Shown here piece after piece: positions 18,577-53,785 of a stretch of 64,000 nt of DNA. Every line of letters starts with the position of its first letter. Within the stretch, counting starts at the first letter, position 1. Under the pieces are notes generated by a model. It saw only the letters and a program-made list of their open reading frames with translations, was not told where the DNA came from and did not search any database. Location: assembly GCF_058153355.1 (NCBI RefSeq), contig NZ_CM177019.1. One strand, written 5' to 3'. The position numbers were made by a program, and so were the translations under genes.

Positions 18577-18668
18577 TGGTCGCCGGATGCGGTGCGAGCG
18601 CCTTATCCGGCCTGGGGAATGAGCGATTTGTAGGCATGATAAGACGCGTTAGCGTCGCATCAGGCAAT
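18577..18668. repeat. REP/BIME palindromic elements after alkA
   Basis: Contains GCCGGATGCGG...CGCCTTATCCGGCC and GTAGGCATGATAAGACGCG...CGTCGCATCAGGCA, the canonical REP inverted pair. Confidence 0.7.
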
Positions 18669-27983: not shown

Positions 27984-28022
27984 CAGTGTGTTGGTAGCTA
28001 AAAAGCCAGGGGCGGTAGCGTG
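27984..28022 (+). promoter_or_regulatory. JUMPstart element with ops motif (GGCGGTAGCGTG) in the wza leader
   Basis: CAGTGTGTTGGTAGCTAAAAAGCCAGGGGCGGTAGCGTG, ~180 bp upstream of wza; ops sites recruit RfaH for antitermination of long polysaccharide operons. Confidence 0.78.
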
Positions 28023-31969: not shown

Positions 31970-32012
31970 CACCGCCCCGTAGGCCGGATAAGGCGCTCAC
32001 GCCGCATCCGGC
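31970..32012. repeat. REP element between wzc and wcaA
   Basis: GTAGGCCGGATAAGGCGCTCACGCCGCATCCGGCA REP-type palindrome. Confidence 0.6.
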
Positions 32013-35793: not shown

Positions 35794-36540
35794 ATGTTGC
35801 TTAGCATAATCACTGTCGCGTTTCGTAACCTCGAAGGGATAGTCAAAACACATGCCTCGCTGGCGCATCTGGCGCAGGCGGACGATATCAGCTTCGAATG
35901 GATTGTTGTCGATGGCGGTTCCAACGACGGTACCCGTGAGTATCTGGAAAATCTCAATGGTATCTATAACCTACGCTTTGTCAGCGAGCCAGATAACGGT
36001 ATCTACGACGCCATGAACAAGGGCATTGCGATGGCACAAGGCAAGTTCGCGTTGTTTCTCAACTCGGGCGATATTTTTCATCAGGATGCCGCAAATTTTG
36101 TCCGTAAGTTAAAAATGCAAAAAGATAACATGATGATCACCGGCGATGCGCTGCTGGATTTTGGCGACGGGCATAAAATTAAGCGTAGTGCTAAACCGGG
36201 CTGGTATATTTATCACAGCCTGCCCGCCAGTCATCAGGCGATATTTTTCCCGGTATCCGGTTTGAAAAAATGGCGTTATGACCTGGAATATAAAGTTTCT
36301 TCTGATTACGCGCTGGCAGCTAAAATGTATAAAGCAGGTTATGCATTTAAAAAACTCAATGGCCTGGTGTCTGAATTTTCCATGGGTGGGGTATCAACCA
36401 CCAATAATATGGAATTGTGTGCTGACGCGAAAAAAGTCCAACGGCAGATATTACATGTGCCTGGCTTCTGGGCAGAATTATCCTGGCATTTACGCCAGCG
36501 TACTACCTCAAAGACGAAAGCCTTATATAACAAAAGCTGA
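35794..36540 (+). CDS. wcaE: Colanic acid glycosyltransferase WcaE (GT2)
   Basis: 248-aa ORF; GT2 N-terminus [10 protein letters not shown]...[10 protein letters not shown]. Confidence 0.88.
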
Positions 36541-42361: not shown

Positions 42362-42470
<109 letters not shown>

Positions 42471-45455: not shown

Positions 45456-46934
45456 ATGAGCTTACGTGAAAAAACCATCAGCGGCGCGAAGTGGTCGGCG
45501 ATTGCCACGGTGATCATCATCGGCCTCGGGCTAGTGCAGATGACCGTGCTGGCGCGGATTATCGACAATCACCAGTTCGGCCTGCTGACCGTGTCGCTGG
45601 TGATCATCGCGCTGGCAGATACGCTTTCTGACTTCGGTATCGCTAGCTCGATTATTCAGCGAAAAGAAATCAGTCACCTTGAACTCACCACGTTGTACTG
45701 GCTGAACGTCGGGCTGGGGATCGTGGTGTGCGTGGCGGTGTTTTTGTTGAGTGATCTCATCGGCGACGTGCTGAATAACCCGGACCTGGCACCGTTGATT
45801 AAAACATTGTCGTTGGCGTTTGTGGTGATCCCCCACGGGCAACAGTTTCGCGCGTTGATGCAGAAGGAGCTGGAGTTCAACAAAATCGGCATGATCGAAA
45901 CCAGCGCGGTGCTGGCAGGCTTCACTTTTACGGTGGTTAGCGCCCATTTCTGGCCGCTGGCGATGACCGCGATCCTCGGTTATCTGGTCAATAGTGCAGT
46001 AAGAACGCTGCTGTTTGGCTACTTTGGTCGAAAAATTTATCGCCCCGGTCTGCATTTCTCGCTGGCGTCGGTGGCACCAAACTTACGTTTTGGTGCCTGG
46101 CTGACGGCGGACAGCATCATCAACTATCTCAATACCAACCTTTCAACGCTGGTGCTGGCGCGTATTCTCGGCGCGGGCGTGGCAGGGGGATACAACCTGG
46201 CGTACAACGTGGCCGTTGTGCCGCCGATGAAACTGAACCCAATCATCACCCGCGTGTTGTTTCCGGCATTTGCCAAAATTCAGGACGACACCGAAAAGCT
46301 GCGCGTCAACTTCTACAAGCTGCTGTCGGTGGTGGGGATTATCAACTTTCCGGCGCTGCTGGGGCTGATGGTGGTGTCGAATAACTTTGTACCGCTGGTC
46401 TTTGGTGAGAAGTGGAACAGCATTATTCCGGTGCTGCAATTGCTGTGTGTGGTGGGGCTACTGCGCTCAGTGGGTAACCCGATTGGTTCGCTACTGATGG
46501 CGAAAGCGCGGGTCGATATCAGCTTTAAATTCAACGTATTCAAAACATTTCTGTTTATTCCGGCGATTGTTATTGGTGGGCAGATGGCGGGCGCAATCGG
46601 CGTCACGCTCGGTTTCCTGCTGGTGCAGATTATCAACACCATTCTGAGTTACTTCGTGATGATTAAACCGGTGCTCGGTTCCAGTTATCGCCAGTACATC
46701 CTGAGTTTGTGGCTGCCGTTTTATCTCTCGTTGCCGACGCTGGGGGTCAGTTATGCGCTGGGCATTGTGCTGAAAGGGCAACTGGCGCTGGGGATGCTGC
46801 TGGCGGTGCAAATAGCCGCGGGCGTGCTGGCGTTTGTGGTGATGATTGTGCTGTCGCGCCATCCGCTGGTGGTGGAAGTGAAGCGCCAGTTTTGTCGCAG
46901 CGAAAAAATGAAAATGCTTTTACGGGCGGGGTGA
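45456..46934 (+). CDS. wzxC: Colanic acid repeat-unit flippase WzxC
   Basis: 492-aa polytopic membrane protein of the polysaccharide-biosynthesis (Wzx) family. Confidence 0.9.
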   Translation: MSLREKTISGAKWSAIATVIIIGLGLVQMTVLARIIDNHQFGLLTVSLVIIALADTLSDFGIASSIIQRKEISHLELTTLYWLNVGLGIVVCVAVFLLSDLIGDVLNNPDLAPLIKTLSLAFVVIPHGQQFRALMQKELEFNKIGMIETSAVLAGFTFTVVSAHFWPLAMTAILGYLVNSAVRTLLFGYFGRKIYRPGLHFSLASVAPNLRFGAWLTADSIINYLNTNLSTLVLARILGAGVAGGYNLAYNVAVVPPMKLNPIITRVLFPAFAKIQDDTEKLRVNFYKLLSVVGIINFPALLGLMVVSNNFVPLVFGEKWNSIIPVLQLLCVVGLLRSVGNPIGSLLMAKARVDISFKFNVFKTFLFIPAIVIGGQMAGAIGVTLGFLLVQIINTILSYFVMIKPVLGSSYRQYILSLWLPFYLSLPTLGVSYALGIVLKGQLALGMLLAVQIAAGVLAFVVMIVLSRHPLVVEVKRQFCRSEKMKMLLRAG

Positions 46935-46949
46935 GTTGTTGTTTTCGGT

Positions 46950-47255
46950 TCCGACAACGGTTGCCGGGTGCAGCGTAAAACGCCTTATCCGTCCTACGGT
47001 TCTGTGCTCGGGACCTGTAGGCCTGATAAGACGCGTCAGCGTCGCATCAGGCACTGAATGCCGGATGCGGCGTGAACGCCTTATCCGTCCTACGGTTCTG
47101 TGCTCGGGACCTGTAGGCCTGATAAGACGCGTCAGCGTCGCATCAGGCACTGAATGCCGGATGCGGCGTGAACGCCTTATCCGGCCTACGGTTCTGTGCT
47201 CGGGTCTTGTAGGCCTGATAAGACGCGCCAGCGTCGCATCAGGCAAAAAGCGGCA
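46950..47255. repeat. Tandem array of three ~97-bp REP/BIME units
   Basis: The block GCCGGATGCGGCGTGAACGCCTTATCCG(T/G)CCTACGGTTCTGTGCTCGGG...GTAGGCCTGATAAGACGCG(T/C)CAGCGTCGCATCAGGCA recurs three times. Confidence 0.85.
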
Positions 47256-47305
47256 ACGAAAAAAACAAACGCAGCCTCACCTGGCATCAAATTTATGAGG
47301 AAAAA

Positions 47306-48586
47306 ATGAAATTACTTATTCTGGGCAACCACACTTGCGGCAATCGTGGCGACAGCGCCATCCTGCGCGGCTTACTTGATGCCATCAACATTCTCAATCC
47401 ACACGCCGAAGTGGATGTGATGAGCCGCTATCCGGTCAGTTCTTCCTGGCTGCTCAACCGCCCGGTAATGGGCGATCCGCTGTTCCTGCAAATGAAACAA
47501 CACAACAGCGCAGCGGGCGTTGTCGGGCGCGTTAAAAAAGTCCTCCGTCGCCGCTACCAGCATCAGGTACTGCTCTCGCGCGTCACCGACACTGGCAAGT
47601 TGCGTAATATCGCCATCGCCCAGGGATTCACTGACTTCGTGCGCCTGCTGTCAGGTTACGACGCCATTATTCAGGTCGGCGGATCGTTTTTTGTCGATCT
47701 CTACGGCGTGCCACAGTTTGAACATGCACTTTGCACGTTTATGGCGAAAAAGCCGCTGTTTATGATTGGTCACAGCGTTGGCCCGTTCCAGGATGAGCAA
47801 TTTAACCAACTGGCGAACTATGTCTTTGGTCGCTGTGACGCGCTGATCCTGCGCGAATCGGTCAGCCTTGATCTGATGAAACGCAGCAATATCACCACTG
47901 CAAAAGTTGAACATGGCGTCGATACCGCGTGGCTGGTCGATCACCACACAGAAGACTTCACCGCCAGCTATGCCGTTCAACACTGGCTGGACGTTGCCGC
48001 ACAACAGAAAACGGTAGCCATTACCCTGCGCGAACTGGCACCGTTCGACAAACGTCTCGGCACCACTCAGCAAGCGTATGAAAAAGCCTTTGCCGGGGTG
48101 GTCAATCGCATTCTCGACGAAGGGTATCAGGTGATTGCGCTCTCCACCTGTACGGGCATCGACAGCTATAACAAAGACGACCGCATGGTGGCGCTCAATC
48201 TGCGCCAGCACATCAGCGATCCTGCCCGTTATCACGTGGTGATGGATGAACTCAACGATCTGGAAATGGGCAAAATTCTCGGTGCCTGTGAACTCACCGT
48301 CGGTACGCGCCTGCACTCCGCCATTATCTCAATGAACTTTGCCACCCCGGCGATTGCCATCAACTATGAACATAAATCCGCCGGGATCATGCAGCAGCTG
48401 GGGCTGCCAGAGATGGCAATTGATATCCGTCATTTATTAGACGGCAGCCTGCAAGCGATGGTTGCGGATACCTTAGGCCAACTTCCGGCGCTGAACGCAC
48501 GACTTAATGAAGCTGTCAGTCGTGAGCGTCATACAGGAATGCAGATGGTGCAATCTGTGCTTGAACGCATCGGGGAGGTGAAATGA
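47306..48586 (+). CDS. wcaK: Colanic acid pyruvyl transferase WcaK
   Basis: 426-aa ORF MKLLILGNHTCGNRGDSAILRGLLDAI..., polysaccharide pyruvyl transferase family. Confidence 0.9.
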   Translation: MKLLILGNHTCGNRGDSAILRGLLDAINILNPHAEVDVMSRYPVSSSWLLNRPVMGDPLFLQMKQHNSAAGVVGRVKKVLRRRYQHQVLLSRVTDTGKLRNIAIAQGFTDFVRLLSGYDAIIQVGGSFFVDLYGVPQFEHALCTFMAKKPLFMIGHSVGPFQDEQFNQLANYVFGRCDALILRESVSLDLMKRSNITTAKVEHGVDTAWLVDHHTEDFTASYAVQHWLDVAAQQKTVAITLRELAPFDKRLGTTQQAYEKAFAGVVNRILDEGYQVIALSTCTGIDSYNKDDRMVALNLRQHISDPARYHVVMDELNDLEMGKILGACELTVGTRLHSAIISMNFATPAIAINYEHKSAGIMQQLGLPEMAIDIRHLLDGSLQAMVADTLGQLPALNARLNEAVSRERHTGMQMVQSVLERIGEVK

Positions 48587-53746: not shown

Positions 53747-53785
53747 TAGTGTACTGGTAGCTGTGGAGCCAGGGGCGGTAGCGTG
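53747..53785 (+). promoter_or_regulatory. JUMPstart element with ops motif (GGCGGTAGCGTG at 53774-53785) heading the O-antigen cluster
   Basis: TAGTGTACTGGTAGCTGTGGAGCCAGGGGCGGTAGCGTG, ~60 bp upstream of wzx; near-identical core to the copy upstream of wza. Confidence 0.78.

Follow-up and report, generated by a model that had tools for sequence, protein, structure and literature searches.

The spacer between wzxC and wcaK in this strain is occupied by a tandem array of three head-to-tail REP doublets, and we are confident that this array is a BIME-2 element, that it is the strain's own allele of the K-12 locus REP144, and that it is non-coding; its origin and its effects on the surrounding operon are probably those we propose below. 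REP elements as a class have been described since the 1980s-90s, and the element class, the K-12 copy and the polymorphism at this site are already known. Here we describe the identity, anatomy, coding status, polymorphism and predicted RNA structure of the array, together with the ops site of its host operon, in a 64,000-nucleotide stretch of contig NZ_CM177019.1 (assembly GCF_058153355.1), which we refer to as the window.

The array sits inside the long wza-wcaM colanic acid operon, in a spacer of 371 nt (46935-47305). The names wzxC and wcaK follow RefSeq annotation in E. coli genomes that are nearly identical to the window; E. coli VL7S7 matches best, with spacer flanks that are 100% identical. 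The features that frame the array are as follows.

45456 to 46934, plus strand: wzxC, colanic acid repeat-unit flippase (open reading frame; named wzxC in matching RefSeq genomes)
46932 to 46934, plus strand: wzxC stop codon, TGA
47297 to 47308, plus strand: wcaK Shine-Dalgarno sequence (GAGG) and ATG, read from the sequence and unpaired in the predicted fold
47306 to 48586, plus strand: wcaK, colanic acid pyruvyl transferase (open reading frame and RefSeq annotation of matching genomes), with its ATG at 47306

Identity of at least 99% over the whole region is found in only 2 of 5473 matching records. VL7S7 itself carries an IS1 in wcaE (L011:8778-9547), where the window (36081-36088) is without IS1 and the wcaE region is intact; the two sequences are 99.7% identical downstream, across the O124/O164-type O-antigen cluster, and 98.2% identical on the upstream side of the IS1 position.

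A single tandem array is detected by Tandem Repeats Finder at 46962-47245, with a period of 96, 2.9 copies, 95% matches and no indels, and a repeat search likewise finds three copies at 96-nt spacing, of which 46979-47074 and 47075-47170 are 100% identical. This identity between two units points to a recent duplication. Together with matches to the REP consensus sequences and the RefSeq gene names, these results confirm the initial annotation in placing a REP/BIME tandem array between wzxC and wcaK. Its description of three near-identical units of ~97 bp was right in the number of units; the period is 96 nt and only the first unit measures 97 nt, which is probably where the figure arose.

Each unit is made of a 34-nt Y REP on the plus strand, a 19-nt linker, an inverted Z2 REP of 36 nt and a 7-nt linker, which sum to 96, and alignment of the units with MAFFT places the additional nucleotide of the first unit in its longer Y loop. 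The inverted REP pair that had been read into each unit is borne out in all three, with Y on the plus strand and Z2 inverted. Consensus searches across the window gave four Y and five Z2 matches, and none in 100 shuffles; two of the Y and three of the Z2 matches fall within the array, where Y copy 1 is too diverged for a three-mismatch search and is plain in the sequence. The GTAG at the foot of each REP reads GTAGGCC on the plus strand in every Z2 and CCTAC (GTAG on the minus strand) in every Y. Hairpin free energies below are predictions in kcal/mol.

46963 to 46997, plus strand: Y REP copy 1, diverged, with a loop 1 nt longer; hairpin dG -10.5
46998 to 47016: S linker 1 (GGTTCTGTGCTCGGGACCT), from the sequence and the unit alignment
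47017 to 47052, minus strand: Z2 REP copy 1 (inverted), 0 mismatches to the Z2 consensus
47053 to 47059: short linker from Z2 to the next Y (ACTGAAT), from the sequence and the unit alignment
47060 to 47093, plus strand: Y REP copy 2, 1 mismatch to the Y consensus; hairpin dG -14.8
47094 to 47112: S linker 2, from the sequence and the unit alignment
47113 to 47148, minus strand: Z2 REP copy 2, 0 mismatches; hairpin dG -21.9, z -5.5
47149 to 47155: short linker (ACTGAAT), from the sequence
47156 to 47189, plus strand: Y REP copy 3, exact consensus, 0 mismatches
47190 to 47208: S linker 3, in the GGGTCTT form that all examined alleles carry in their last unit
47209 to 47244, minus strand: Z2 REP copy 3, 1 mismatch to the Z2 consensus

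Elsewhere in the window there is a single Y REP at 31979-32012 (minus strand) between wzc and wcaA, a single Y/Z2 doublet at the cpsB-cpsG junction, 42383-42416 (plus) and 42428-42463 (minus), and, further upstream, an isolated Z2 REP at 18630-18665 (minus). REPs are present at every loose junction of the colanic acid operon, in agreement with an earlier report (PMC3158064).

BIME-2 elements are defined by inverse z2 and y REPs joined by a short S linker, by conserved tandem copies with short flanking linkers, and additionally by a conserved GTAG, the lack of an IHF site and a number of units that varies between strains at each locus (PMC3333891). Every one of these sequence-level features is present here: three Y REPs on the plus strand alternate with three Z2 REPs on the minus strand, the linkers are the 19-nt S and the 7-nt spacer with no long L (34 + 19 + 36 + 7 = 96), the tandem copies are conserved to the degree given above, GTAG stands at every Y and every Z2, the array lies wholly within the spacer and is thus extragenic, and across E. 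coli the number of units ranges from 0 to 6 in 96-nt steps. The K-12 copy, REP144, spans 2118467-2118652 and is listed for the tandem pair wzxC/wcaK (supplement of bioRxiv 10.64898/2026.03.23.713779). It shares with the window array its site, its flanks, the Y/S/Z2 unit and the signatures of the first and last units; it differs in that the K-12 MG1655 spacer is 275 nt long and holds two units, as against three units in 371 nt in the window, two of these being 100% identical. The unit also resembles the mobile doublets of REPIN-RAYT systems, being 96 nt long with two inverted REPs and a conserved GTAG, and occurring in variable copy number, as models of TnpA_REP amplification predict (PMC3333891). 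A REPIN hairpin of ~100 nt with two inverted REPs finds its counterpart in the 93-nt Y-S-Z2 segment, predicted to form one long hairpin (dG -55 kcal/mol, z -7.7).

BIME-1 (RIP/RIB) elements resemble the window array in that a Y REP is paired with a second REP in inverse orientation; they differ in having a z1 partner and a long L linker that carries an IHF site, and in occurring as a single copy (PMC3333891), all of which are absent here. IHF binding, which the initial annotation had offered next to gyrase binding, is not supported: the REPs are Z2, the linkers are short, there is no L linker, and the IHF consensus WATCAANNNNTTR has no match anywhere in the array. The general association of some BIMEs with IHF would speak for an IHF-binding BIME-1 element. 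Because the REPs are z2 (0-1 mismatches) and the array is without an IHF consensus, and with linkers of 19 and 7 nt in a tandem unit, we consider that identification next to impossible and retain BIME-2.

The length of the spacer varies widely between strains. With the two 400-nt flanks alone as the megablast query, 4661 of 5426 complete E. coli genomes were matched, and spacer lengths were read from 59 rows with both flanks, evenly stepped down the ranking.

Spacer of about 71 nt: 0 units, 7 of 59 genomes
Spacer of 179 nt: 1 unit, 7 of 59 genomes
Spacer of 275 nt: 2 units, 15 of 59 genomes, a count inflated by K-12 laboratory derivatives
Spacer of 371-373 nt: 3 units, 9 of 59 genomes
Spacer of 466-468 nt: 4 units, 7 of 59 genomes
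Spacer of 563-565 nt: 5 units, 7 of 59 genomes
Spacer of 660 nt: 6 units, 1 of 59 genomes
Spacer of 145 or 167 nt: partial internal deletion, 2 of 59 genomes
Spacer of 161 nt: unrelated sequence, 4 of 59 genomes

Parsing one example of each length class upheld the counts of 0 to 6 units. REP copy number, which the initial annotation had suggested comparing across strains, thus does vary in whole-unit steps, and part of this variation has been published before: REP indels at wcaK-wzxC were reported in 2011, and O157 strains show a change in sequence similarity at the spacer (PMC3158064). The end units keep their signatures in every allele (an AA loop in the first, the GGGTCTT linker in the last) and the internal units are mosaic, as would be expected if internal units undergo unequal exchange or slippage with one another. 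REP doublets are thought to have been spread by a single-copy REP-associated transposase (TnpA_REP/RAYT), and the array, once in place, would gain and lose whole 96-nt units by unequal recombination, replication slippage or TnpA_REP-mediated strand exchange, growth and shrinkage of this kind giving rise to the series of 0 to 6 units across E. coli. Related genomes share one length, with two units in all four K-12 rows and four units in all five rows of equal score, so the array changes slowly and does not hypermutate. Two alleles fall outside the whole-unit series, one of 145 nt with a Y REP and only the last few bases of a Z2 (L005:401-545) and one of 167 nt whose Z2 is short of about 12 nt (L010:401-567), and they indicate that the array also decays by internal deletion. 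In a test for a recombination junction, the 400 nt on either side of the spacer were set against nine alleles; left and right mismatch counts differed modestly (for example 8 vs 17 and 13 vs 7), with no clear discontinuity at this resolution.

The allele without units shows what surrounds the array.

46935 to 46947, plus strand: left arm (GTTGTTGTTTTCG) of an older hairpin enclosing the array; closes the whole array in the minimum free energy (MFE) fold
46952 to 46959: left copy of an 8-nt flanking direct repeat (CGACAACG), from the sequence
47251 to 47258: right copy of the 8-nt flanking direct repeat (CGGCAACG), from the sequence
47257 to 47271, plus strand: right arm of the older hairpin, degenerate in sequence; predicted by the MFE fold to pair with 46935-46945

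In the empty allele L002 (401-471), GTTGTTGTTTTCG pairs with CGAAAACAACAAC over 13 bp without a mismatch, in a hairpin that immediately follows the wzxC stop codon (predicted RNA dG -17.8, z -5.1), and the 8-nt repeat is present in a single copy, CGGCAACG. In filled alleles the array lies in the loop of this hairpin, bracketed by the direct repeat CG(A/G)CAACG. The repeat could be the footprint of an insertion or a microhomology used for deletion; since by our own estimate a 7-of-8 match between two flanks of ~25 nt has a chance probability of roughly 0.1, we leave it uninterpreted. A 25-nt direct repeat that brackets the spacer (46902-46926 and 47300-47324) was considered as a target duplication and rejected, because the wzxC tail EKMK(T/M)LLRAG, ending at the stop codon, is conserved in genera with spacers of 13-17 nt. 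The last codons of wzxC (GAAAAAATGAAAATGCTT...) match the ribosome-binding site and start of wcaK (GAAAAAATGAAATTACTT...) at 20 of 25 positions, a resemblance that, given this conservation of the wzxC tail, is old or coincidental and unrelated to the array. An inverted repeat at 46708-46736 and 47251-47279, 76% complementary and partly inside the wzxC coding sequence, was treated as chance.

Two long open reading frames cross the array.

46920 to 47246, minus strand: repeat-derived pseudo-ORF of 108 codons with a TTG start, subjected to the same tests as the plus-strand frame
46936 to 47298, plus strand: repeat-derived pseudo-ORF of 120 codons with a TTG start, unannotated in RefSeq and without a Pfam family

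The initial annotation had listed both of these frames of more than 100 codons, with their internally repeated peptide, and they are present exactly as listed (108 and 120 aa). Both contain a 32-residue peptide repeat (RLIRPTVLCSGPVGLIRRVSVASGTECRMRRE) in register, because the 96-nt period is in frame (96 = 32 x 3). The accompanying claim that three does not divide the unit length was wrong; with a period of that kind each unit would fall in a different frame. The judgement that the frames are artefacts stands on annotation, Pfam, protein look-up, the pattern of variation and their absence from empty sites. None of the ten RefSeq records inspected (K-12 MG1655 and nine PGAP-annotated genomes) has a CDS in the spacer, no Pfam family lies above threshold for either product, neither exact product occurs among ~15 billion public protein sequences, and the frames are missing altogether from the empty-site alleles and the unrelated 161-nt alleles. 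Across 21 aligned units from six alleles (MAFFT), 18 substituted columns are distributed over codon positions as 5/9/4 and 9/5/4 in the two frames. Third positions are not in excess, and the variable positions are concentrated in the S linker (7 of its 19 nt), the REP loops and the mismatch positions. One might argue that one or both frames encode real repeat proteins, given that each exceeds 100 codons and that copy changes by whole units preserve the frame. With TTG starts, no annotation, family or database match, alleles that lack the frames entirely, variation devoid of a codon pattern, and a sequence wholly accounted for by two REP consensus sequences, the chance of this is negligible. 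The array codes for nothing, and both long ORFs are repeat artefacts.

Species-representative genomes were scanned with a DNA pattern, which gave 120 loci (L012-L131), 75 of them with wzxC directly upstream of wcaK. Across these 75 enterobacterial genomes the median spacer is 30 nt, and in 47 it is at most 40 nt (usually 13-40 nt), little more than a ribosome-binding site. The spacer reaches 100 nt or more in 16 of the 75 (100-271 nt), where it is filled by different families of small palindromic repeats: Box C-like elements, seen in several genera and at least eight genomes (for example L125, L130, L094, L050 and L096), GTAG REP pairs in three Citrobacter genomes (L072, L074 and L090) as well as in E. 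coli, and an ERIC-like element in one genome (L034). Because the long spacers hold different repeat families, the junction has been colonised repeatedly and independently. The 161-nt E. coli allele (L004:401-561, from SCU-122; NEBExpress and two other sampled genomes have a spacer of the same length) shares no sequence with the BIME array and contains a Box C-like core (CCCCCTCACCCTAACCCTCTCCCCAGGGGGCGAGGGGAC). Such recurrence could in principle reflect recurrent selection for a structured intercistronic element at the wzxC-wcaK junction, with the 0 to 6 units acting as a heritable dial on the expression of wcaK-wcaL-wcaM relative to the upstream genes. We consider this improbable; if it were true, the dial would set the transcription or mRNA stability that reaches wcaK-wcaL-wcaM, the last decoration and assembly steps, and the independent arrival of Box C-like, REP-pair and ERIC-like elements at this junction in other genera would represent convergence and not mere tolerance.

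At the RNA level the array is predicted to be highly structured. For the sense RNA of the 371-nt spacer the MFE is -185.8 kcal/mol, where shuffled sequences give -130 ± 5 (z = -10.4), single REP hairpins are predicted at -10.5 to -21.9 kcal/mol, and a Y-S-Z2 doublet, folded as the one long hairpin described above, reaches -55 kcal/mol as sense RNA and -45.8 kcal/mol as antisense RNA. The plus-strand RNA would fold into six very stable hairpins, or into three longer doublet hairpins. The wcaK Shine-Dalgarno sequence and start codon are unpaired in the MFE fold. The first REP stem begins 28 nt after the wzxC stop codon, which puts it beyond the 15 nt within which REPs are reported to influence how the upstream gene is translated (summary in bioRxiv 10.1101/2024.07.17.603846). 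A sigma-70-like promoter was detected on neither strand of 46400-47800, and no intrinsic-terminator pattern was found in or adjoining the array, the sole terminator-like match lying inside wcaK at 47741-47759.

The Rfam family naRNA4 (RF02564) models the Y-linker-Z2 unit of REP325, a Y/Z2 array transcribed from the yjdM promoter (PMC4550694), and its matches to the window raise the idea that the array encodes naRNA4-like nucleoid-associated small RNAs that condense the chromosome with HU. REP325 is likewise a Y/Z2 array, and two matches, at 47116-47186 (79.7 bits) and 47020-47090 (72.9 bits), exceed the gathering score of 59.5. Both are on the minus strand, antisense to the operon; on the transcribed plus strand the scores are 55.4 and 49.0 bits, under the gathering score, and neither strand of 46400-47800 offers a promoter-like site, so that none was found for an antisense transcript either. 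The inter-hairpin linker is moreover 6 nt shorter than that of the model, and a 2026 preprint from the laboratory that proposed naRNA4 (shared author S. Adhya) reports no measurable nucleoid compaction by REP325/naRNA4. We have rejected membership in naRNA4, since the threshold is passed only antisense to the operon, and hold the production of such RNAs here to be very unlikely. A further Rfam match, to MIR2646, is spurious (32.8 bits against a gathering score of 245).

REP325 is nonetheless the best-studied functional analogue of the window array, being a stabiliser of its upstream gene and a partial Rho-dependent terminator. The two arrays have the same REP types in a tandem, intra-operon arrangement, and the naRNA4 model matches the Z2-linker-Y junction of the window array. 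They differ in that REP325 (yjdM-yjdN) has six Y/Z2 units and the window array three, in the reverse of the REP325 orientation relative to operon transcription, with the 6-nt shorter inter-hairpin linker and no U spacers, in a host operon under RfaH control. From this and other REPs we infer possible effects of the site on RNA stability, attenuation and gyrase. By analogy, the hairpins would most likely block 3'-to-5' exonucleases and so protect the upstream wza...wzxC message, and they may slightly lower read-through into wcaKLM; the suggestion in the initial annotation that the array splits the operon into differently stabilised transcript segments is in this respect plausible. Tandem gene pairs with REPs are upstream-biased genome-wide. 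Against such a bias at this site, mean K-12 RNA-seq counts are about 36 for wzxC and about 91 for wcaK in the one table available, from conditions in which the operon is essentially off.

RfaH-modified polymerase resists Rho, and the leader of the colanic acid operon contains the site for RfaH recruitment.

28011 to 28022, plus strand: ops/JUMPStart core (GGCGGTAGCGTG), about 190 nt upstream of wza, in the operon leader

Exact ops cores number two in the window against 0.11 expected, the second being at 53774-53785 (plus strand) between galF and the O-antigen cluster, and an RfaH ChIP signal is present on wza-wcaM (PMC9765446). Because the operon has an ops site and recruits RfaH, strong Rho-dependent termination at the array is unlikely and attenuation would be weak at most. 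An in-vitro Rho-binding screen lists a NusG-dependent peak antisense to the 3' end of wzxC (supplement of bioRxiv 10.64898/2026.03.23.713779); its K-12 coordinates (NC_000913.3, 2118651-2118749, plus strand) correspond to ~46866-46964 on the minus strand of the window, and its overlap with REP144 is 1 nt.

In the DNA itself, the Y REPs probably serve as gyrase sites. Gyrase cleavage is enriched genome-wide in BIME-2 elements, prefers y REPs and rises when transcription is blocked, and the cleaved BIME-2 elements are only a subset of the class (PMC6379681). Since the array is a BIME-2, gyrase binding, as the initial annotation supposed, is plausible for it as a member of an enriched class; a look-up by gene name in the Topo-seq supplements of that paper did not turn up wzxC/wcaK. 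A rival proposal would place the main role of the array here, as a strong gyrase site that works independently of transcription, or as a topological insulator, midway along a highly inducible operon of 20 kb. Its three y REPs and the cleavage pattern of the class are in keeping with that proposal; the restriction of cleavage to a subset of BIME-2 elements, the missing entry for this site and the existence of strains with 0 units count against it, and we regard it as possible but doubtful.

Alternatively, the array may be selfish or simply neutral, a tolerated REPIN cluster at one of the operon's few non-overlapping gene junctions, with no measurable effect on expression or topology. Since many strains have an empty site and most other genera a spacer of 13-40 nt, no function is required at this position: empty-site alleles such as L002 are common (7 of the 59 sampled genomes), the short spacer predominates in other genera (47 of 75), and no constraint is obvious in a copy number that ranges from 0 to 6. 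REPs are found at the operon's other loose junctions too (31979-32012 at wzc/wcaA and 42383-42463 at cpsB/cpsG). Fragments of REP325 with 2-4 hairpins, moreover, show no detectable Rho dependence, so a six-hairpin array may do little. Against pure neutrality, REPs as a class measurably affect neighbouring genes and the distribution of gyrase, and an mRNA structure of -186 kcal/mol is unlikely to be invisible to exonucleases. Neutrality is thus a serious prospect, to which we give appreciable weight while continuing to favor a BIME-2 array with the modest stabilising, weakly attenuating and gyrase-binding effects proposed above.

For annotation, the consequence is that neither of the two ORFs of more than 100 codons should be called a gene, and both genome assembly and typing schemes need to allow for spacers at this junction that differ in length by steps of 96 nt. 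For the biology of REP arrays, a natural series of 0 to 6 units within a well-understood, inducible, RfaH-controlled operon would offer a convenient test bed in the ongoing debate on whether such arrays act as stabilisers, as attenuators or as neither.
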